NCBI GenBank assembly: GCA_951406725.2
Contig: OX597819.1
Coordinates: forward strand, 98,890,001 to 98,954,000
Length of the DNA stretch: 64,000 nt
Direction: 5' to 3'
DNA from: Octopus vulgaris
Taxonomy: Eukaryota
A model generated the notes under the pieces. It was not told the DNA's origin, did no database searches, and saw only the letters and a list, made by a program, of their open reading frames with translations. Shown piece by piece: positions 13,429-63,990 of the stretch. Numbering within the stretch: the stretch's first letter is position 1; each line of letters begins with the position of its first letter. The position numbers and the translations under genes were made by a program.

Positions 13429-13817
13429 GAGAAATCAAGGTTAATAGACCGGATATAGTTGTCAAAGATCTCGAAGAAAAAAATGCCTTTTTACCGATGT
13501 ATCAGTACCAACAGATGACAATATATATCTAAAAGAAGCGATGAAACTCTCAAAAGACAAAGATTTAGAAACAGAGGTAACGCGAATGCAGAGCCTAAAA
13601 ACAGAAACAAATCCTATAATAATAGGTACATTAGGTATGCTTAAAAAGCATTCAGACAAACGCATAACCAAAACATCAAGACTTACGGATTTATATAAAA
13701 TACAGACAATAGCACTACAAGACATCCTACGTAAGCACCACAACAAACCACTGCACATACCCAAGGCACACAGAGCTACGCAATGAAAGCTGAAAGCAGG
13801 CGATAAAAATAAGACTA

Positions 13818-13821
<4 letters not shown>
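13428..13821 (+). mobile_element. Dong/R4-like element 3' fragment (RLE endonuclease)
   Basis: NRPDIVVKD...DVSVP...KLSKDKDLETEV...PIIIGTLG (PD-D RLE motif). Flanked on both sides by (AAT)n; ends in actactgaat(aat)n. Confidence 0.85.
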
Positions 13822-13895
<74 letters not shown>

Positions 13896-13896
<1 letters not shown>

Positions 13897-14370
13897 TCTT
13901 GGTATAAAAGATGGGCTACAGCAAATATTCTGCTCAATACCACAGATTTGCTTGTCAGTTGCTTGACCTTAACCAGTTGAGCATGTCCCTTAGTGGCTGA
14001 CGATATGTGCATCTCTGATCACGAGCAGAAGTAGTGGGGGAGCATCATAGCCATGTGTTGAGAGGGATTCTTTGGGGTTTGAATAGTTCACCTCTGGAAA
14101 CATGGGTGGTTCTTTCAACATCCTTAAACAACCCTTATTCAGGGACCTTTTGAGCGGGATGGGCTACTCAACCTGAAGAAAATTCTAACTGGGCCCCACC
14201 TGCAAGGTCATGTGCTGTTTATCTTGATATGAGATCACCATGTCGCGCACATATTGTTGTGATGCATGTGCCCGGTGTACCCTTATCAGACGGGTAGTCA
14301 TGATGGGTATATTGGGCTTCGTATATTTTACCCCTGTGTCACTTTGATGGCATGCACTGCTCTCTCACTC
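13896..14370 (+). mobile_element. Non-coding 3' segment of a (TAA)n-targeting retroelement
   Basis: 475 bp between two (AAT)n arrays; its 3' 200 bp match 13150-13347. Confidence 0.7.
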
Positions 14371-14410
14371 AATAATAATAATAATAACAATAATAATAAT
14401 AATAATAATA

Positions 14411-16974
14411 ACTATAGACCCATAACCTGCTTAACAACTATGTATAAAACACTAACATCTGTCCTGACGGAATATACCTATAGTTTTTTGACAGACAGCA
14501 GCATATTCCCTAATGAACAGAAAGGATGTAAACGTGGATCCTACGGTTGTAAAGATCAACTACTCATCAATAAGATGATCTTAGAAGATTGTCACAAACG
14601 ACACAAAAACTTATCAATAGCCTGGATAGACTATAAAAAGGCTTTTGATAGCCTACCACATAGCTGGATTAAGAAATGCCTAGAAATCTATAAGATAGCA
14701 CCTACTCTGTGAAACTTTTTGTCTGTAAGTATGAGATCATGGAGAACCACACTAACTTTGAACAGCGACAATGAATCTCTAAATGATGGTGATGTAAAAA
14801 TTTCATGTGGCATTTTCCAGGGTGACTCACTATCAAACTTCTCTTCTGTTTAGCCTTAATACCTCTCTCAAAACTGCTCAATGACGCGCAGTACGGATAT
14901 AAAATGTTTGATAAAAACATAAATCATCTCATTTACATGGATGATTTAAAGCTCTTTGCAAAAAATGACCAACAACTCAAGGGCTTACTGGCGATTGTCA
15001 AACAATTCAGTGATGACATCAGAATGCAATTTGGCCTCGATAAGTGTGCAAAAGCTACCTTTATCAAAGGAAAAATGACAGAAACATCTAACGTTAACCT
15101 TGACCAGCAGAATGTCATAAAATAATTAGACCCAGCGGAGAACTACAAGTATCTAGGGGTAATTGAAAGAGACGGAATAAGGCATTCAGAGATGAAGGAA
15201 AGGATCAGGAGAGAATGTTATCGCAGAGTAAGAGCAATACTCAAGACAGAGCTGAATGCGAGAAACAGGATCGAAGCGATCAATGCATTAGCCATACCAG
15301 TCGTGACTTACAGTTTCAATATCGTTAACTGGTCAATTACTGAAATATGTAATCTTGACAGAAAAAGGCCGTGGACTTTTACAACTGGCAATAACAATGA
15401 AGATTGCTACAATTGGCCTAGACACCTACCTGAAAAACTCTGAGGACTGGATGTTAAAACTTGTCTCAAAACATGAAAACAAGAAAGCATCAAACTCAGT
15501 AACAAAACAGGCAAAGGAATACCTAAGTGAATTCCGAATACAACAAATTTCGGAATTAGAGATAGACATAGGAGTGGTTGTGTGGTAAGTAGCTTGCTTA
15601 CCAACCACATGTTTCCGGGTTCAGTCCCACTGCGTGGCATCTTGGGCAAGTGTCTTCTGCTATAGCCTCGGGTCGACCAATACCATGTGAATGGATTTGG
15701 TAGACGGAAACTGAAAGAAGCCTGTCGTATATATGTATATATATATGTGTTTGTGTGTCTGTGCTTGTCCCCCCACCATCGCTTGACAACCGATGCTGGT
15801 GTGTTTACGTCCCCGTCACTTAGCGATTCGGAAAAAAGAGGCCGATAGAATAAGTACTAGGCTTACAAAGAATAAGTCCCGGGGTCGATTTGCTCGACTA
15901 AAGGTGGTGCTCCAGCATGGCCGCAGTCAAATGACTGAAACAAGTAAATGAGTATACAAGAAACAAGCACAGAAAAAGCTAAGCGCATGAAAACCCGTGC
16001 TAAATCTGCGGCCTTAGATATTCTGAATGATAAATGGCAAGAAAAACCTCTCTATGGCAAATACCCAAAGAGAGCGAATAATGCAGATGTTGTCAAAGCC
16101 CTGTCCCATCAATGGCTAATGGCCTCTGGCTTAAAATCTGAAACAGAGGGGTTTATCATAGCAGCTTAAGATCAATGCCTACCAACAAGCAACTACCAGG
16201 CCAACATATTAAAGATCAGCAGCAGTCCAACGTGTCGTGTATGCCAGCAACAAAATGAAACCATTGATCATGTGGTTTCCAAGTGCAGTCTTCTAGCGCC
16301 TACAGAGTATCTCAACAGGCACGATAGAGCTGCACAATATATTCACTGGGTAATCTGCAAAAACCTGGATTTGCCCCATGAAAAAAACTGGTGGGAACAC
16401 AAACCACCCCCTGTGCTTGAAAATGACCACACCTCACTCCTCTGGACCTTCACCATTCAAACTGACAGAAAGATAGATGCAAATAGGCCAGACATCATAT
16501 TGAAAGACTTCAAACAAAGAACATGCCTTCTCATTGATATGACTGTCCCAATCGATATAAACGTATCTGTCAAGACCTACCAAAAACTGAGTAAATATAA
16601 AGATATTGAAATAGAAATCAGCAAAATGTGGAACCTGAAGACTAAAACAATACCTGTTGTCATAGGTGCCCTGGGGATGATAGCAAAAGGGGCTGATAGC
16701 TACCTAACTCAGATACCAGGAAACCCCAAAATGGCAGAAATTCAAAAGATAGTGCTCATGGGAACTGCTCATATCCTACGCAAAATACTTTCTATGTAAT
16801 CTCAAGGTTTAAAACAAACATTTTTTTTTAGACATCCACCAGTACAACACAAAAAACAACCAAATATATGGCACACTAGGCATAACAACAACGTGAACTT
16901 CCAGCCTGTTGTCTCTTGATGTCTCCGGGTGAGACTTGGAGCCAACTTGTACAAATATAAAGCAAAAGTCAAAC

Positions 16975-16977
<3 letters not shown>
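14411..16977 (+). mobile_element. 5'-truncated Dong/R4-clade non-LTR retrotransposon (RT, CCHC, RLE), disrupted
   Basis: NYRPITCL, EQKGC, AWIDYKKAFDSLPHSWI, GIFQGDSL, HLIYMDDLKLFA, FGLDKCA, YKYLG, CRVC..ETIDHVVSKC, RPDIILKD..LIDMTVP..KLSKY, stop at 16799. Flanked by (AAT)n. Carries stops, frameshifts and a SINE insertion. Confidence 0.93.
15569..15953 (+). mobile_element. SINE, abundant family A (tRNA-like head, internal TA/TG microsatellite) inserted in the Dong ORF
   Basis: taggagtggttgtgtggtaagtagcttgc...gactgaaacaagtaaa. The Dong reading frame resumes after it. Confidence 0.9.
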
Positions 16978-17033
<56 letters not shown>

Positions 17034-17039
<6 letters not shown>

Positions 17040-17294
17040 CAGAAACAATTCCTATCATAGTAGGTGCATTAGGAATGATAAAAAAATATTCAGACAAATA
17101 CATAACAAAAACACCAGGACTTACAAACACATATAACATACAGAAAATTGCACTACTAGGCACTGCACACATCCTACGCAGAACACTTTCCATACAATAA
17201 CCATCAGAGCATCGCAACAAATCACAGCACATACCCAAGGCACACAGAGCTGCGCTCGGTAGTGAAGTGAAAGCACGCTATAAAAATTAAACTA

Positions 17295-17298
<4 letters not shown>
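17034..17298 (+). mobile_element. Dong/R4 3'-terminal fragment, copy 1
   Basis: TETIPIIVGALGMIKKYSDKYITKTPGLTNTYNIQKIALLGTAHILRRTLSIQ*, then 3'UTR and (AAT)n. Confidence 0.88.
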
Positions 17299-17357
<59 letters not shown>

Positions 17358-17622
17358 AAGAACAACAACAACAACAACAAGAACAACAGCAACAACAAGA
17401 ACAAGAACAACAACAACAACAAGAACAACAACAATAACAACAACAATAATAACAATAATAATAATAAGAAGAAGAAGAAGAAGAACAACAACAACAACAA
17501 CAAGAACAACAACAACAACAAGAACAACAACAAGAACAACAACAAGAACAACAACAACAACAAGAACAACAACAAGAACAACAACAATAACAACAACAAT
17601 AATAACAATAATAATAATAATG

Positions 17623-17681
<59 letters not shown>

Positions 17682-17699
17682 AAGAACAACAACAACAAC

Positions 17700-17750
<51 letters not shown>
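17299..17750 (+). repeat. Higher-order compound microsatellite (AAT)n(AAG)n(AAC)n
   Basis: The ordered block repeats about three times and recurs at 18017-18320. Confidence 0.9.
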
Positions 17751-17757
<7 letters not shown>

Positions 17758-18016
17758 TAGAAACAATTCCTATCATAGTAGGTGCATTAGGAATGATAAA
17801 AAAATATTCAGACAAATACATAACAAAAACGCCAGGACTTACAAACACATATAACATACAGAAAATTGCACTACTAGGCACTGCACACATCCTACGCAGA
17901 ACACTTTCCATACAATAACTATCAGAGCATCGCAACAAATCTCAGCACATACCCAAGGCACACAGAGCTGCGCTCGGTAGTGAAGTGAAAGCACGCTATA
18001 AAAATAAAACTACTGA
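17751..18016 (+). mobile_element. Dong/R4 3'-terminal fragment, copy 2
   Basis: Near-identical to 17034-17298, with the same 5' breakpoint. Confidence 0.88.
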
Positions 18017-18267
18017 ATAATAATAATAATAATAAGAAGAAGAACAACGACAAGAACAACAACAAGAGCAACAACAAGAACAACAACAAGAACAAGAAGA
18101 ACAACAACAACAAGAACAACAACAACAACAACAAGAACAACAACAATAACAACAACAATAACAACAACAATAATAACAATAATAATAATAATAATAATAA
18201 TAATAATTATAATAATAATAATAATAATAAGAAGAAGAAGAAGAACAACAACAACAACAACAACAAC

Positions 18268-18318
<51 letters not shown>

Positions 18319-18320
<2 letters not shown>

Positions 18321-18832
18321 GTGTGCCAAGGCCACTTTCCAGAAAGGGAAAGTGTAGACCACAAATTCAGTCGTGATAGATGTTGACACAGTCATAAGAA
18401 AGCTTGAGCAAGAACAAACATACAAATATTTAGGGATAAATGAAGGCTCTGGTATTCAGCATGCAAGCATGAAAGAGAAGTTCAGGAAAGAATGTTATAG
18501 GAGAGTTTGTTCAGTCCTGAAATCTGAACTAAATGCACGTAACAAGGTGTTAGCTATAAATTCCTTAGCAGTTCCAGTTGTTACTTATAGCTACAATGTG
18601 TTGAACTGGAATATGAGTGAAGTAAAGAATATAGATAGGAAAATACGCAAGCTGCTGAGTTGTAATAGGATGCACCACCCAAAGGCAGACGTAGATCGCC
18701 TTTACCTTCCCAGAGCCCAAGGAGGTCGAGGCCTGATCCAATTTGAACTAGCTTACAAAATAACCACAATTGGACTGGCCAAATATCTTGAAATAAAGAA
18801 TGACTGGATGCTAAAGCTCGTGGAAAATCATA
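18319..18832 (+). mobile_element. Internal RT/thumb fragment of another Dong/R4 family
   Basis: KCAKATF...YKYLGINEG...KECYRRV..LKSELNARNK..AINSLAVPVVTYS...HHPKADVDRLYLPRAQGGRGL. Starts directly after (AAT)n. Confidence 0.88.
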
Positions 18833-19379
18833 TTATTATTAATAATAATGCCCTGATACAGTAGTAGTCAGTGGCTCTCATGGCTCTCATATGTAGCAGC
18901 TAGACATTAAGCTGACTTTTAGAGACTTTCGTTCTGCATCTACAACAGGGCACAACTGTGTGTTAGTTCTGTGCTCTTGTGGACTCGTATGTCCATAATT
19001 GCCCGCCCCTGGACTTCATTTCAGCGATAACAACGTTTCCATATTGCACCAAGATGATGATGAGCAACCAGAGTTCGACTTTGTCACCGATGTCCTTCAT
19101 GACGTTTCTCGTACTCCCCTGCTCCAAATACTGTGATATCAGTTTATGGGTAGATGTATGTGAGCTTGTACTTTCGTCTGTTCTTGAAAACAAAGTAAAG
19201 CATACCATGGCATATTCTTTCTCACAATGAAGGAAATTTATCTGTAAGTATCGCCCCTGACTATTCTTTAGAAGATACAAGGGAAATCCTTGAAATTATG
19301 CATTTCAAGGCAAAGGTAAGTTACTTTTCTCTTGCACTAGGGGAATAGCTTCTGGTTGAGATGCATTCATTTTAGAGAC

Positions 19380-26554: not shown

Positions 26555-26740
26555 GGCGTGGGTGTGTGGTAACTAGCTTGCTTACCAAATTTGCTTCCAA
26601 ATTTGAATACTGTCAAGAATGTGCTTTTGTAGCCGTCCTGAATTGAAAAAATATTGAAGGCGTGACTGTAAGGTAGGCATCTTTTTTTTTTAGTGGTTTT
26701 GTTGTTTGATATTGTTTTTTTCTTTTTTCAAAAAAGAAAT

Positions 26741-28493
26741 CCTCACTGGGTACCAGACATTTGTCTGCCTGCAGTCGCGCTAAGTGACTCACTTAGCTGT
26801 GAGAATTGTTGTTTGGTGGGCGTGTCTCGCCACCTAAATTTGTGAAAATTTTATGAAATTTTCTACCAATTCGTGGAGGATTTTTCTGTGTTCCTGCTTC
26901 TGAACCTGGAGTACCTGATTAGAGTACCAATTTGTTGAAAACATGTTGGCCAAGATTACCAGAGGCCGGAAGTGTATTTGCCGTGATTTTAACTGTCTTC
27001 TTCCCTTCTTTTTCTCTGCGCTGTCTTTCTGCTCTTTTATTTATTTTTGACTGTGCTAGACTGTTTATTTTGAACTATTTAATTTTCTTTTTCTGCAAAC
27101 ATGGCAAAAAAAATTGCTTTGGATTGGGAAATTGTGCCTTCAAGGCAGTGGTTGGAAAATTTCAATGAGAGAACCGTGGCCTTGAGAAATTATTGTAAGT
27201 CTCTCGACACCATTACTGTATTCTCTCGAATTGATTTTAAAAATGCGTTGGCAGAATATCTGCTAACTATTAAGTTTATTGCAAGGGGTGTCAAGTATGC
27301 AACTGTGTGGTTGCTATTTGACACCCCTGAGGAGGATCGCAATTTTGCGAGCCAGCCCTTAAAAGGGAAAAAAATTCTGTTTCTTCCCACATATGGTGGG
27401 TAGAAATAAACAAGAGCTTGGGTCTATGGGCTGCCAACCGGAATAAAACCCGAGTGGATAGAAGACACTATCCGCCTGGGTCTGGGTGGCAACGAAGCGA
27501 AGCTCATTAATGTTGAAGTGTTGCCTGCTGCTGATTCGGTGGGGTCGAAAGCAGTTTTGACCCTGTGAACCCAATCAGCCAATGATCTGGTTTTTCCAGA
27601 TTTTTTGAGGATGGCCGGTTCTAGGTATCCGGTGATTCTTGAGGGACGTCCCCCCCCCCAAGTGTCACCTGTGCCTGGAACCGGGCCACATTAAGAACTG
27701 CCTTCAGGACCAAGGTAAGGTCCTGGAGCAGTTAATAAAAGTAGTGCCCCCCGCTCCCCCTTCAGAGGGAGAGATGGAGGCAGTCGAGGAAGTGAAGACC
27801 TCCTCGAAAAAAGGTAAAATAGAAAGAAGGTGGGCAACCATTGTTGCCCACCAATGGATCCTGAGGCGACGGGACAAAACGAAAGCACTCCACCCTCCCG
27901 TCATAAAGGAGAAAAGAAGAAAAAAGTAAAACGGGGTATTGCCGGCGGTTGCTAGTACACTGCCGACATGTCCCGAGGTCCCTTCGGTAGGGAATTGTGC
28001 CAACGGAGGGGGGATTTGAGGACTCTCCCAATGTGGAGGGGGAATTTGTAGTCCTGTTTCACAAGGGAGGGGAAATAAAAGAAATGATCAAAAAGTTTAA
28101 TAAAAAAGGTCGGAGGGAAGGGATTATTACCTGTACCAAGGACTCTGATTGGCCTCCGAAGGTAGCTGCGGAGGTCGTGTGGTAAAAAAACTTGTTTGAG
28201 GGATTCCTTCCCTGAGGACACATTCCGCTTTATGCTGAAGTACCCCGAACTAGCACCATCGAGGTGCTTGAGTGAGGCATTGAGACTGGTCGGGTGACGG
28301 TGGGGCGTAAAATTTAAGAGGCTTAGTGCCTCGTATTGTGCATCAAAATTAAGGTCAGAGGTTTAATGCCTCGGTTTGTTGTTTTTTTGAGTTTATTGTT
28401 AGTAAGAGGCTCAGCGCCTCAATTTATAATGAACTGTGGGGCTAAAGTAAGAGGTTTAATACCTCGTATTGTTTTCATGGTGTAAAAAAAAAA
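26741..28493 (+). mobile_element. ORF1-only (half-L1/Tx1-like) non-autonomous retroelement
   Basis: About 360-bp 5'UTR, a single disrupted ORF1-like frame, four hairpin repeats, then A11. No endonuclease or RT. The 5' boundary is approximate. Confidence 0.7.
27101..28297 (+). pseudogene. Disrupted L1/Tx1-type ORF1 (RRM-like region plus CCHC zinc knuckle)
   Basis: MAKKIALDW...LFLPTYGG*K*TRAWVYGLPTGIKPEWIE...YPVILEGRPP/KCHLCLEPGHIKNC, then a low-complexity basic region. In-frame stops and frameshifts. Confidence 0.75.
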
Positions 28494-29139
28494 GAGAAGT
28501 AAAAGATCGACGGGTGTCTTGTCTTTTCCCATCAATATCATCATTTTCATCACTCATCAATGTTTTTGTCCTGCTCGCAAGATACTCCCTCTGTGCTATG
28601 CCTTTATGGCAAAATTTTGAAATAAACTACCTTGCTTACCAACCACATGGTTCCGTGTTCAATCCCACCGTGTGGCACCTTGGGCAAGTGTCTTGTACTA
28701 TAGCCTCGGGCCGACCAAAACTTTGTAAGTTGATTTGGCAGACGGAAACTGAAAGAAGCCCGTCATATATATGTGTGTGTATCTGTGTGTTTGTGTGTCT
28801 GTGTTGGTCCCTAGCCATCGCTTGACAACCGATGTTGGTGTGTTTATGTCCCCGCAACTTAGCAGTTTGGTAAAAGAGACCGATAGGATAAGTACTAGGC
28901 TTTCAAAGAATAAGCCCTGGGCTCGATTTGCTCGACTAAAGGAGGTGCTGCAGCGCTGAAACAAATAAAAGAATAAATGAATATGTATATATTTGGCATA
29001 CGTAAGCACATTTGTAAAATCTTGGTATATACCTATGTGTACTTGTAATATACATGTACAGGCTTTTTACTGTGGACGTGTACAAACGTATGCATGAGTG
29101 TGTATGAGTGCATTGAACTACAAATATGGTTGCATGTAT

Positions 29140-47172: not shown

Positions 47173-47469
47173 ATTTATTTCTGCCTCTCTCCCACTCCTT
47201 CTCTACATCTGTATATATTCTTTTACTCTTTTAGTTGCTTCAGTCATTTTGACTGCAGCCATGCTGGATCACGACCTTAAGAGGTGTTAGTCGAGGAAAT
47301 CAACCCCAGTACTTATTTCTTGTAAGTCCAGTACTTATCCTATCGGTCTCTAAAAAATCCCGTTTTCTGACGTCCTGTGCCCATGTATATATCTATATAC
47401 ATATATATGTATTTATATACATATATATCTATATACATATATATGTATGTATGTACATGTATCTACATA

Positions 47470-48190
47470 CACCATCACAAAATCACAAAATCACCATCAC
47501 AAAATCAACAAGCTGCTTCTAACACCACTGCTACTACTGCCAAAATAGAAAAACCACTACTACAACCAAATAAAACCCCCTGCCGTTACTATTCTAAAGG
47601 CAATTGTAGATTTGGCCCCAGCGGCACAAACAAAAATGGACGCTGTGCTTTTCCCCATCCGACCTTATGTCGTAGACTTGCTATGGGCACCTGTCCATAC
47701 GGTATAACAGGAAAAATTGCCCCCACCTCCACCCCAAATACTGTCCTAAATATAGAATCTATGGTTCTGATCCTAAATACGGATGCATAAGAGGCAATGG
47801 ATGCACCTTATTCCATCCTAAACTGTGCCAAACTTCTGTCTCACAAAGGATGTGCCTGAACCCAGAATGCAACCACCACCATCTGAAGGGCACAAAACGA
47901 TCACAGAATAGATGTAAACAGGAACAGAGGAAATCTAGGACAACAACAAGAACAAAATACAACCACGTTTCCCCTCCTACAATCAAACAACGTAGACAGA
48001 ACCATGAAAAAACACCAAATAACGCCAACTTGAAATATGTATCCTCTGACCAAGTGGAAAACCAAACAAGTAACTCTTTTTTACTGACATACCTGGAAAA
48101 TATGAAGGCCGACCTAAGCCAGGAGATCCAGCGAGCCATCACCAACCATCTATGCAAATCAGAAGGACCACTCACCCATTACCAACTTCC
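47470..48190 (+). pseudogene. LINE ORF1 remnant with tandem CCCH zinc fingers
   Basis: CRYYSKGNCRFG...CAFPHPTLCRRLAMGTCPYG..CPHLHPKYC...GCIRGNGCTLFHPKLC...CLNPECNHHH, read across a frameshift near 47715. Confidence 0.75.
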
Positions 48191-48194
48191 CTTA

Positions 48195-51100
48195 CCTCGA
48201 CATTCCTGTTAAATGTACGTGGCATCAACCCATCAATTATTGCCCAAAAATGGAAGATCCCATATATAGAGAGTTGACTTGCCGAAATGGCACATTGCTT
48301 CCCTTTCTTTATCCTTACCGAGACTCACCTGAACAACACCCATATGGACGCAGAGGTGAAAATAAAGATTTCACTATTGTTCGTGCGGATCGCACAGACC
48401 GAAATAAGGGAGGGACAGCCATCTTTATCCATGACTCCTTTTCACTTGATGCCAAGGACACATTTTCCAATGGCTACTGTGAATCGGTATCACTATACAA
48501 CAAAGCCAAGGACATAACCATTGTTGGTCTTTACAGGCCTCCCCAGGCACCTCTAAAGTACTTTGAAGAGTGCCTTAGCAAAGTCAAGTCCTTCCTTCGG
48601 AAGTACCACTCCGGAAACATACTAGTGATGGGTGATTTTAACCTCCCTCATGTGAACTGGCCCACAAATACTCCGAAGTTAGGCAAGTGCTCTACATCAG
48701 ATAGGGCAGCAGCAGAACTGCTCTTTAATCTGATGGATGAGTATTTTCTGACTCAGCTAGTGCTTGAACCAACGAGACAGAATAAAACGATCTTGGATCT
48801 GGTATTGACCAATCACTCTAGCTACGTTCACAGCATTTCAGTCGAAAAACTCTCCTCTCAGACCACGACATGATACTCTGCAATCTTAATTCCCGACATA
48901 TAAAAACCAAACCAGCCAATCCCACTTCATGGCACCCATTTGACAACATAAACTTCCACAAAGCGGACTGGGGAACAATCAGAAAGGATCTGTCTTCCAT
49001 CGACTGGTCTTTTACTCTCAATTCCCCTCATATTGAGACCGCGTGGCAGCACTTTGAAACCATTGTCACCTATACATGGCTGCTCTCGATTATTGGGATC
49101 GCCTTAAAGCCTTGAAACTTTACTCCCTCCAGCGTCGCCGTGAGCGGTACATCATTTGTACGATGTGGAAAATATACCACCAACTTTGCCCAAACGACAT
49201 AAACATTAGCTTCAAGGTTCATCCAAGACTTGGACCACGGGTTATACGTCCCCTGCCAAATTCAAGATCACAACATACATGTACACTGCAACATAATTTC
49301 TTTTCCTCAACAGGCCCTGCCCTATTTAACATTGTCCCGAGGGAGATCAAAGAGGAAAAGGATCCCATCAACTTCAAACAGAGTCTGGATAGATTCCTTC
49401 AAAGAATACCCATGCTCCAAACACGCTCCCAAGAAATCTAATAACACAAACAGAAACCGGCTCCCTAAAAAGAAAAAAACACTCATCGGGCGCATCAAAA
49501 GACTCAACAAAAAAATCAACCAGTTAAAATATTCCCACACACAACATCCACATTCAACAACAATGAAAAGACTAGAGCTGGAAAAACTTCATCTGCAGAC
49601 TAACATGAAAACCTCCATCGAAAATCAAAGAGCTGTGGAGGAACAATGGGTAATCAAAAACATCAAAAAGAACCCAAAAGTGTTCTATTCTTATGCAAAT
49701 AAGCATAGAACCACTGTCTCACCCATTGGGCCATTGATTGATGATAACGGCATTCCCCAACACGATGCTAAAGAAATGGCAGAAATACTGCAGAAACAAT
49801 ACTGCTCTGTCTTCAGTGTTCCCACTGATATTGACGTAAAGGGAAACGAACGAAGTTGACTCCCAACACAAAATCGCAGACATAACCTTCACTGCCACCG
49901 ACATCGTAGCAGCAATAAATGAGGTCAAACATTACTCTGCTGTAGGTCCTGATAGATTTCCCGCTAGTCTCCTGACGGAATGTAGATATCAACTTGCAGT
50001 CCCTCTGACCAACCTCTGGAGAAACTCGTTAGACGCAGGTTATATAGCGAAACAGTTTCTATCCCAGTCGGTCATCCCGGTTTTCAAACAGGGAAACAGA
50101 TCCCTCGCAGTCAACTATCGCCCAATCTCACTCACCTCCTACATCATTAAAGTGTTTGAAAGAGTGTTAAGGTTAAGGATAGCTGACTTCCTGGAGACCC
50201 ACAAACTCCTAAATGCAAATCAGCATGGCTTTCACTGTGGCAGGGACTGTCTAAGACAGCTCTTACACCACATTGAAGATGTACTCAAAGCCTTGGGAAC
50301 AGGTTCGAACTCTGACGTCATATATCTTGACTTCAGTAAAGCGTTCGACAGGGTAGACCATAACATCCTACTCTCAAAATTGGCAAATGTTGGAATCCGT
50401 GGAAAAGTTCTACGCTGGATTCAGTATTTCCTGGCAAATAGAACACAACATGTTGTAGTTGATGGAGTCCACTCAAACCCAGCAAAAGTCACCAGCGGTG
50501 TTCCCCAGGGAACTGTTTTGGGTCCGCTACTCTTCATAACTTACGTAAACGACCTTTCCAGTGTCGTACATCACTGCAAAGTGAAAATATTCGCTGATGA
50601 CACTAAGCTCCAGCAAATCGTCAATGAAGAAGCAGACCGAACTCAACTCCAGTCTGATCTATATGCTGTGAGTCAATGGGCAGACAGAAACAAAATGCAA
50701 CTGAATGAGGGAAAATTTGAGCTGATGCATTTTGGAAGAAATTCCTCACTAAAACAACCATACTCTCTTCCTTCAGGGGAACCGCTCACAGCCTCTAACA
50801 ATATCAGAGACCTGGGTGTAATTGTTGATGACGATCTCAGTTGGAGTGCACACATCAACAAGAAGGTCGATATAGCTCGTAGGATGAGTTCCTGGATCTT
50901 AAGAACTTTCCGGTCCAGAGAACAAGGTGTCATCATACCACTTTTTTCCTCCTTTGTACGGCCACACCTTGAATACTGCTGCCCACTGTGGTCTCCTCAC
51001 ACAAGACAAAACATCTCCAGAATTGAGTCACCCCAGAGGGCTCTCACTAAACAAATTGAAGGCATGGCTGCTCTCGATTATTGGGATCGCCTTAAAGCCT

Positions 51101-51510
51101 TGAAACTTTACTCCCTCCAGCGTCGCCGTGAGCGGTACATCATTTGTACGATGTGGAAAATATACCGCCAACTTTGCCCAAACGACCTAAACATTAGCTT
51201 CAAGGTTCATTCAAGACTTGGACCACGGGCTATACGTCCCCTGCCAAATTCAAGATCACAACATACATGTACACTGCAACATAATTTCTTTTCCTCAACA
51301 GGCCCTGCCCTATTTAACATTGTTCCGAGGGAGATCAAAAGAGGAAAAGGATCCCATCAACTTCAAACAGAGTCTGGATAGATTCCTTCAAAGAATACCA
51401 GATAAGCCACCCATAATTGGATACAACTCACCCAACAAGAACTCACTACTTGAACAAAACTGGATACAACTCACCCAACAAGAACTCACTACTTGAACAA
51501 AACTTGACTT
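48195..51510 (+). pseudogene. LINE ORF2 remnant: apurinic endonuclease plus reverse transcriptase
   Basis: LLNVRGI, LTETHL, GGTAIF, GLYRPP, MGDFNLP, PTRQ..ILDLVLTN, SDHD; NYRPISLTS, QHGF, YLDFSKAFDRVDH, SGVPQGTVLGPLLF, FADDTK, DLGV, RPHLEYC..WSP. Longest intact piece is 50152-51381. Confidence 0.93.
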
Positions 51511-60472: not shown

Positions 60473-61741
60473 CGTGGGGCGTTCAATAAGTAATGCCCCT
60501 GACCCACTTCCCATAGCAGTAGAGCAACGACACTTGGCACAGTTATTAGTATTTTCCTACATAGGAACTACCCAGAGTTATGCATTTCTCCCATCGTTTG
60601 ATACAGCTCTGGAGACCGTTTTTTGTAGAAGACCCCAGCTTGGTCCTCCAACCACGACGTGACTTCAGAAATCAAGGCTGCATCAGCTGGGAAACGCTTT
60701 CCTTTCAAAATCAACTTCATGGCTGGGAAGAGGTGAAAATCAGAGGGTGCAAGGGGAGGAGTTCATAGCTGCACACCTGTGCTTCTGATCTGGCGACACG
60801 CGAGTTGTGGACCGGAGCGTTGTCCTGCAGGAGGAGGATGCCTTTGCTGATCTTGCCCCGCCTCTTGATTTTGATAGCTTCTCTTAATTTCCTCAAAAGT
60901 GAAGCATAATAAGCTCCTGTAATTGTGGTACACTTTGCCAGGAAATCTGTCATCACTACTCCGTCCTGGTCCCAGAAGACTGTGAGCATAACCTTGTCAG
61001 CGGAGGGCTGCACCCTTGCCTTCTTTGGAGGAGGTGAGTCACGGTTCTTTCACTGCATTGACTGGGCTTTGGTCTATGGATCATAGTGATGGACCCAGGT
61101 TTTATCCTGTGTGATCAGTCTTTTGAAAAAATTTGGCTCATCTTCTTGGCACATCTCCAAATTCATCCTCGAGCACTCAACGCGTTCTTGCTTCTGGAAA
61201 GGTGTGAGCAACCTGGAAATCCATCTGGCAGACACCTTTTGCATATGCAAATGGTCATGAATGATAGTTTCCACAGACCCGGTACTAATCTTGACCTTAT
61301 GGGCTATTTGGAGAATAGTTATGCGTTGACCTTCCAAAATGGCAGCCTCAACTTGACGGACAGACGTCTCATCAACGGCAGAAGGGGGTGACCAGATCTG
61401 GGAGCTGTTTCCACAGAGTTCCGACTATGTTTGAATTCACAATGCCAGCATTTTACAAGGTCATATGATGGGGCATCATCACCATAAGTTACTTTCATTT
61501 CATCAAAAGTCTCCCGTGGTGTGCGTCCTTTCAAATACAAAAACCAGATCACTTCTCGACACTCAACAGGCTCCATTTCACACTTGACTCAGTTCAAACA
61601 CCTGTAAATCAGAAACCACAATTATTTCAGAGCTGTAATTCGCCACTTAATCTATAGAGGTATAAATAAGTGCACATGCAAAATTTGCTAGATCAAACAA
61701 CTTCAAGTGGGTCAGGGGCATTACTTATTGAACGCCCCTCG
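60473..61741 (-). mobile_element. Full-length mariner transposon (1269 bp), 37-bp TIRs, TA TSD
   Basis: TA|cgtggggcgttcaataagtaatgcccctgacccactt ... aagtgggtcaggggcattacttattgaacgcccctcg|TA; TIRs 36/37 identical. Confidence 0.96.
60530..61576 (-). pseudogene. Mariner transposase, frameshifted
   Basis: MEPVECREVIWFLYLKG (HTH), KVSARWISRLLT (WVPxxL), ITQDKTWVHHYDP, KVMLTVFWD, LLLQDNAPVH; split over at least three frames. Confidence 0.92.
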
Positions 61742-63534: not shown

Positions 63535-63990
63535 ATTAAATTCACTTGAAAAGAAAAGTGAGAGTAGAGAGGCAAGCTTTGTCTAGCAAATGCTTCAAAA
63601 AAAGATTGGTGAATGTAGCAAGGATGGCACGTATGAATGACGAAGCCACCTTGAGCATAATCCTATGGAACCCGGAAAAACTTAAAACAGAGAGTTACTT
63701 ACTTGCAATTAAATGTGTTAACATGTGACATTATTGACCGAGGGTACCGTGGTATTTTCCGTAGGCTTTTCTTTCCACGGATAAACCTTATCTGCTTTCC
63801 CCTTTACACTTTACATCATGACATTTCTGTGATACACGATCCTTATTGATCGTTTTTTTTTCTTTTTTTTTCCTTTTTTCGATCCCTTTTGATCGAAAAC
63901 CTAGCCCACATTTTTTTCTCCCACAAAAGAAAAGCTCTACTTTGTAATTTGTCCCGTCTGTGTTCAGCTTTGTGTGGCTAATAAAGAAAC
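63535..63990 (+). mobile_element. 5'-truncated Tx1/L1-like LINE 3' end
   Basis: ORF2-like C-terminus HLKRKVRVERQALSSKCFKKRLVNVARM, then a pyrimidine-rich 3'UTR ending ctaataaagaaa. Clade assignment is from recall, not a search. Confidence 0.6.

Follow-up and report, generated by a model that had tools for sequence, protein, structure and literature searches.

We consider that a 2,036-bp insert in the Octopus vulgaris genome is probably a full-length but dead copy of an ORF1-only, non-autonomous octopod LINE family, likely derived from L1/Tx1 and moved in trans by an L1/Tx1 ORF2. The insert occupies 26589-28624 on the forward strand of the window, that is, the whole 64,000-nt stretch analyzed here (assembly GCA_951406725.2, contig OX597819.1, positions 98,890,001 to 98,954,000). 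Its likely affiliation with Tx1/L1 was judged from the ORF1 architecture, the length of the target-site duplication (TSD), and the 3' end, since the element has no ORF2 by which it could be placed. The initial annotation had proposed an ORF1-only half-element at this site; the core of that proposal, a retroposed, multi-copy octopod element with an ORF1-type protein and no ORF2, was upheld, whereas the ends assigned to it and a suggested family link to 63535-63990 were not.

Boundaries and target site of the insertion

The ends of the element were defined by an 18-bp TSD, the left (26571-26588) and right (28625-28642) copies of which were identical at 17 of 18 positions in the alignment. The insertion had split one SINE, with its 5' head left in the left flank (26555-26588, from where the joined flanks align with other SINE copies) and its body resuming at the duplicated site in the right flank (28625-28954, 73-85% identity to other copies in the window); when joined, the flanks gave an 85.6% match to a further SINE copy across 348 columns. 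Position 3 of the TSD was C in both copies, while it was G in four other SINE copies of the window found within 3 mismatches and also in most reads. The shared C together with the split SINE thus indicated a target-site duplication of one SINE. Many Tx1 families, though not all of them, prefer particular target sequences. Because SINEs are reported to make up 11.6% of the O. vulgaris genome (PMC13282606), insertion into such a repeat is unremarkable.

The 3' end of the insert was AATAAA at 28621-28626, the final two A's of which overlap the TSD. On the basis of the TSD, the ends previously placed at 26741 and 28493 were corrected to 26589 and 28624-28626, the earlier interval having been short by approximately 150 nt on the 5' side and 130 nt on the 3' side. 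LTR-like terminal direct repeats bounding the insert were not found, and the combination of an 18-bp TSD, an AATAAA end, and no bounding terminal repeat fits target-primed reverse transcription (TPRT). A perfect 13-bp inverted pair (26680-26692 and 28483-28495), built of T10 and A10 runs, was rejected as terminal inverted repeats because the TSD lies outside the pair, and it probably represents chance homopolymers. At the single locus examined, the element had inserted as one 2,036-bp unit flanked by the 18-bp TSD.

In the six frames of 26589-28626, no match to an endonuclease (EEP) or reverse transcriptase (RT; RVT) domain was obtained, while the same scan detected the RT frame (E 2e-30) and the EEP frame (E 1e-12) of a CR1-like element within the window as positive controls, and the earlier remark that no trace of either enzyme is present was thereby borne out. 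This CR1-like element (by eye) is a near full-length LINE at 47371-51500 (+); it encodes EEP at 48118-48873 and RT at 49840-51381, and a CCCH zinc-finger ORF precedes these. Its 3' 337 bp (51063-51399) recurs at 49075-49410 with 98% identity, between EEP and RT, and the duplicated piece is due either to nesting of a 3' fragment or to an error of assembly. An RT-bearing LINE, R4/Dong-like by eye, is represented by several fragments at 13448-18864 (RVT_1 at 14263-14712, zf-RVT at 16170-16799), whose repeated 3' ends lie within long AAT arrays, and a mariner-type DDE transposase remnant lies at 60717-61424 (-) (Transposase_1, E 6e-20).

Related copies and the 3' region

For comparison with copies elsewhere, contigs from 4 of 11 runs (three organism labels, four studies) were aligned at 80% likeness and read out from the rows listed, namely 40 of 627 variants, 12 of 81 indels, and 15 of 133 joints; the query included the SINE at both ends, and all 24 loose-end rows listed were SINE. 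The 32 contig pieces listed differed from this copy by 8-20% (median 13%), and diverged contigs covered the whole element in all four runs. Depth was expressed as summed depth divided by the median depth of the listed pieces, a unit that is not a copy number. The values were consistent across the four runs, with every bin in the insert reaching at least 7 units in each of them: 7-83 over the 5' UTR and ORF start, 14-87 over 27909-28547, and 53-121 in the final 70 nt of the tail (7-121 for the UTRs and C-terminal part overall), as against about 170-1,900 for the RRM core (27270-27695). The deeper core indicates a much larger related family, which may comprise either an autonomous parent or more half-elements.

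The leader, or 5' UTR, spans 26589-27100 (+), consists of 512 nt with 41% T and several palindromes, and was covered by diverged contigs in 4/4 runs; it is presumed to contain an internal promoter. A contig joint (26687->26769), seen in two of the four runs, links the upstream 100 nt to the remaining element. A 5' UTR had also been described before, with the element beginning at 26741.

Downstream of the ORF, four hairpins of the form GAGGY-N5-RCCTC were identified within 28318-28465 (+), at 28318-28332, 28358-28372, 28406-28420, and 28451-28465, separated by T-rich spacers; the underlying 18-nt unit occurs in four copies 3' of the TGA, spaced 40, 48, and 45 nt. The 198 nt 3' of the stop gave a fold z of -2.46 (2/200 shuffles equally stable), in good agreement with the structured 3' region described earlier. 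The hairpin pattern, which was derived from these same four copies, had in the window four exact matches and one elsewhere with 2 mismatches (0.26 expected), and its paired form had no matches in viral and prokaryote contigs. Covariation was discarded as support for the hairpins: pairing holds in 20 of 20 cells, one change being two-sided, but 263/500 shuffles of the four sequences reached the same result. Rfam yielded two matches, both sub-threshold, and ARAGORN no tRNA.

Four of the 32 listed pieces, with 13-16% mismatch, cross the stop at 28297 by at least 31 nt (X1 28155-28422; X2 28155-28420, 28188-28447, and 28092-28336). As X1 28155-28422 and X2 28155-28420 look like one locus, the four pieces represent two or three loci besides this one; variants at 28285 and 28313 were present in 15-35 contigs per run. 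The junction of ORF end and hairpins in other loci thus indicated that the succession of ORF end and hairpins, uninterrupted by an ORF2, characterizes the family. Of the ORF1-hairpin-poly(A) junction that had been proposed as a check across copies, the ORF-end/hairpin part was found in these four listed pieces, but the hairpin/tail part in none of the 32, among which no piece bridged the A10 run and the tail (28447-28518 was spanned by none).

The A10 run (28484-28493, +), which had been taken for the terminal poly(A), is internal to the TSD-bounded insert, being followed by 133 nt more and then by the AATAAA at the TSD. Upstream of the run no AATAAA was found, and on neither side of it was an ORF2 start or C-terminal relic detected; hairpin-side contigs end at 28494-28496 in 3/4 runs. 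The 133-nt tail (28494-28626, +), which terminates in AATAAA with no poly(A) after it, was multi-copy in all four runs, and in three of them tail contigs end at 28626-28627 according to the variant table, matching the TSD-defined end.

A short LINE-like tail at 63535-63990 (+), which has two CGATC-N6-GATCG hairpins and terminates in AATAAA, had been named as possibly the 3' end of the family whose RT the element parasitises. Its last 127 nt folds with z = -3.43 (0/200 shuffles equally stable); it resembles an L1-type ORF2 end by eye only, and Pfam returned nothing for the region. Its DNA similarity to the element did not go beyond the controls: blastn found A/T runs alone, the local alignments were equalled by 218/2,000 and 152/5,000 shuffles, and the end at 63535-63990 ranked 6th, 17th, and 37th of 132 AATAAA-anchored stretches. 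The two 3' ends thus appear to share a similar layout and nothing beyond it. This was the one LINE-like tail of the window compared with the element, and a partner ORF2 having the element's 3' end was not found.

The decayed ORF1 and its octopod homologs

The decayed ORF1 (27101-28297, +) begins with an ATG at 27101, and its first frame (27101-27658) carries three stops. It had been described as a single disrupted frame of about 400 codons; a disrupted ORF is indeed present, but it is a multi-frame patchwork with these three stops, another at 27927-27929, and about five frame changes. At 27401, 27408, and 27568, which fall inside the three first-frame stops, most covering contigs read another base, and thus this copy decayed by itself. 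A C10 run (27650-27659) holds a frameshift between ILEGRPP and CHLCLEPGHIKNC, and the CCHC knuckle reported after ILEGRPP was confirmed across it. This single zinc knuckle (27663-27701, +) has the spacing CX2CX4HX3C, one residue below canonical; the knuckle of the Octopus sinensis homolog has HX4C spacing, but its first Cys is replaced by F. Among the 20 first-frame variant sites listed (listing rule unknown), codon position 2 accounts for 11 and position 3 for 4 (p = 0.04), a skew that hints weakly at constraint on the protein in the family.

The 3' limit of ORF1 is less sharply defined. The expected stop near 28297 is present as a TGA at 28295-28297, but we only infer that ORF1 ends there; the homolog P0003 and this copy both terminate directly after a basic run, here at the TAA at 27927-27929, so that the end may instead be 27929. 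On the other side, 27991-28182 is free of stops in one frame (0, versus 4 and 4 in the others), and an indel at 27989 in most contigs ties this frame to the preceding one. A likeness by eye between 28030-28294 and a C-terminal domain of homologs was rejected after failing three tests. Against a 5-sequence HMM the segment came 258th among 920 scored sequences, window tiles did not reveal the likeness, and of 16 pairwise tests the best was equalled by 101/1,000 shuffles; the model of the corresponding part of P0033 was mostly of low confidence.

The closest ORF1 homolog, and the sole match among 478 candidates, was P0003 (281 aa, 73% identity, E 2e-82), the product of the annotated O. sinensis gene LOC115225585, for which there are three RefSeq protein accessions. 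A phmmer search with P0003 against 1.84 billion representatives retrieved 47 proteins at E<=0.001, P0003 included. Among the 20 homologs looked up, 14 carried an organism or status label, 12 of them naming Octopus or Argonauta outright, and every organism named was an octopod. The octopod homologs are numerous, at 17-32% identity, frequently fragmentary, and for the most part alone in their clusters. At E<=0.05, neither an RT nor an EEP domain was found in any of the 47, although RT-free ORF1 proteins are expected for autonomous elements as well, and none matched Transposase_22 at the same threshold. The element's own protein had no ORF1-family match in Pfam, while zf-CCHC matched 19/49 aligned homologs at a loose cut-off of E<=5 (best 4e-07).

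The AlphaFold model of P0003 (mean pLDDT 80.6) contains two alpha/beta domains, and the Foldseek listing for it was filled by tandem-RRM proteins. VIA-align superposed residues 14-101 on the La RRM (Z 8.3, rmsd 2.9, 81 aligned) and residues 103-183 on U2AF65 RRM1 (Z 8.1, rmsd 2.7, 75 aligned), Z-scores near 8 being modest. Projected onto the element with approximate boundaries, the RRM-like domains correspond to 27134-27397 (+; model residues 14-101) and 27398-27649 (+; model residues 102-185). The homolog is therefore predicted to comprise two RRM folds and a CCHC knuckle, which by architecture is a type I LINE ORF1. L1 ORF1p was absent among the fold matches listed, an absence that excludes nothing, and a sequence search of the PDB matched essentially zinc knuckles alone. 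The ESM Atlas leads were CCHC and ZCCHC3-type clusters at 0.90-0.92, with the ZCCHC3-type at 0.90; ZCCHC3 presumably resembles Tx1 ORF1. Type I ORF1s, composed of RRM and CCHC, are described in non-mammalian animals as consistent with Tx1 (PMC5203782). The predicted RRM and CCHC architecture would thus match a feature of Tx1, though one not exclusive to it.

Several further searches concerned the genomic setting of the homologs. In the O. sinensis gene model P0017, a 45-residue match to the ORF1 N-terminus is joined to an integrase core domain, and the model is probably chimeric. No fused long proteins (1,405-4,010 aa) were found among 4,805 candidates, which is a weak test, and a near-length profile search returned just two rows, both known already. 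Nothing was confirmed by searches for loci with P0003 in metagenome, viral, and prokaryote collections or with P0053, which sits on a 5,720-bp contig, in metagenomes.

Mechanism, alternative readings, and known ORF1-only elements

If the element is a non-autonomous L1/Tx1 derivative, it would have been transcribed from its 5' UTR, its own ORF1p would have bound the element RNA in cis, and an L1/Tx1 ORF2p would have been recruited for TPRT, with the hairpins or the tail as candidate docking sites for the RT. Stem-loops at LINE 3' ends have been reported to mark stringent recognition in several systems (PMC3747384). According to the repeat survey of O. vulgaris, there are 80 L1-Tx1 families (56.3 Mb), and 13 recently active ones account for 421 insertions and 2.29 Mb, at about 5.4 kb each (PMC13282606), and thus candidate helpers exist. 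It is possible, though on balance doubtful, that ORF1-only elements form a large and old octopod radiation, in which the pool seen over the RRM core and many of the homologs would themselves be half-elements; ORF1p would then have been kept under selection, and a multivalent array of four hairpins would capture the ORF2p of autonomous L1/Tx1 elements. As a weak hint in this direction, four members of one homolog cluster (P0007 and P0050-P0052) sit on Logan contigs of 1,849-1,930 bp, near the element length.

The absence of ORF2 could alternatively reflect a one-off or rare internal deletion in an autonomous L1/Tx1 element that carried the hairpins between ORF1 and ORF2 and lost the latter near the A10 run. 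The interval that no listed contig spans and the clustering of contig ends at 28494-28496 would accord with such a deletion, as would the large related ORF1 pool and the long active L1-Tx1 insertions common in O. vulgaris (PMC13282606). Contig ends, however, also cluster at the T10 run (approximately 26682-26691), and thus homopolymers break contigs anyway; no ORF2 start or C-terminal relic flanks the A-run; and the bin 28477-28547 has a depth of 14-27 units, like its neighbors, although the meeting of two contig sets could mimic this. We therefore regard the deletion as unlikely. The same contig ends, together with a depth that, in the final 70 nt of the tail, is 3-9 times that of the preceding bin, can also be read to mean that the family ends at the A-run (28493) and that 28494-28626 was carried along by 3' transduction or a template switch, in which case the element would still be a half-element. 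Against this, AATAAA does not precede the A-run, yet one stands exactly at the TSD end, and tail contigs extend at least 54 nt back from 28572, with the same end in three runs; this reading is quite improbable.

A TSD, an intron-free body, UTRs, and an AATAAA would be equally compatible with processed pseudogenes of a host gene, for example a domesticated ORF1 like L1TD1, and the closest homolog being an annotated gene and the ZCCHC3-type clusters at 0.90 in the ESM Atlas point the same way. The gene model of LOC115225585, however, is without the first knuckle Cys, the many highly diverged, fragmentary, single-member-cluster octopod homologs form a transposon pattern, and the depth over the core amounts to hundreds to thousands of units, which together render a host-gene origin very unlikely. 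ORF1s with RRM and CCHC occur in Jockey/I-type elements too, and in P0017 the 45-residue match is joined to an integrase domain; the element could hence be an ORF1-only derivative of another clade (Jockey/I/Nimb-type LINE) or a gag-only derivative of an LTR element. However, I/Jockey ORF1s usually have three knuckles, versus one here, TSDs of LTR elements measure 4-6 bp, versus 18 bp here, no LTR-like terminal repeats are present, the predicted fold is RRM rather than capsid, and P0017 looks chimeric, leaving this origin with hardly any probability. Nothing points to a host function of this dead copy.

As a probable ORF1-only octopod LINE, the element recalls the mammalian HAL1 (half-L1), a non-autonomous element of several origins that encodes ORF1p only and needs ORF2p in trans (PMC5753468, PMC3627910), in that an ORF1p-type gene is kept with no ORF2. 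Unlike HAL1, it has two predicted RRM folds with one CCHC, a mollusc host, an array of four 3' hairpins, and an AATAAA with no poly(A) behind it. Mammalian L1, from which HAL1 derives, has an ORF1p of type II, with a coiled coil, one RRM, and a CTD (PMC5203782), and HAL1 in the strict sense was rejected, the octopod ORF1 being of type I with no Transposase_22 match in the 47 homologs. The initial annotation had noted that ORF1-only elements exist in vertebrates; the class extends beyond these, as HeT-A and Ag-Sponge occur in insects, and HeT-A, HAL1, and Ag-Sponge have been grouped as "ORF1-present" bipartite non-autonomous LINEs, whose protein probably forms multimers with the one encoded by the autonomous partner (Kojima, 2018; PMC5786205). 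HeT-A (Jockey clade, Drosophila) and Ag-Sponge (CR1 clade, Anopheles) derive from parent clades other than the one presumed for the octopus element, and HeT-A is telomeric, whereas the octopus copy lies in a SINE among interspersed repeats. With autonomous L1/Tx1 LINEs bearing a type I ORF1, the element has the ORF1 architecture, long TSD, and AATAAA end in common, but it lacks the APE-RT ORF2 and measures 2.0 kb, versus an average of about 5.4 kb for the active octopus L1-Tx1 insertions (PMC13282606). SIDEs, or ORF-less bipartite LINEs such as Persaeus, R2 SIDE, and RIME, are reported to keep their 5' and 3' parts and to have lost the catalytic middle (PMC6740152); they are non-coding and a few hundred bases long, whereas the octopus element retains a whole ORF1.

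We found no cephalopod ORF1-only element in the literature searched, although a prior annotation in Repbase or Dfam is possible; in the main text and one supplement of the O. vulgaris repeat paper (PMC13282606), the terms "ORF1", "HAL1", and "non-autonomous" are absent, and its repeat library may contain the family. The element is probably an octopod addition to the known but sparsely populated class of ORF1-only LINEs. An octopod case with a two-RRM and knuckle ORF1 would represent a further, probably independent, origin of such LINEs and suggests that loss of ORF2 with retention of ORF1 is a general strategy. Two questions could be addressed in such a natural system: what makes ORF1p necessary in cis when ORF2p may come from elsewhere, and whether the RT of another element is brought in by 3' hairpins. 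Such elements evade RT-based classification and appear as "uncharacterised" CCHC genes in octopus gene sets. Should the octopod radiation considered above prove true, it would constitute a lasting lineage of protein-coding LINE parasites in a mollusc that RT-based annotation has overlooked.
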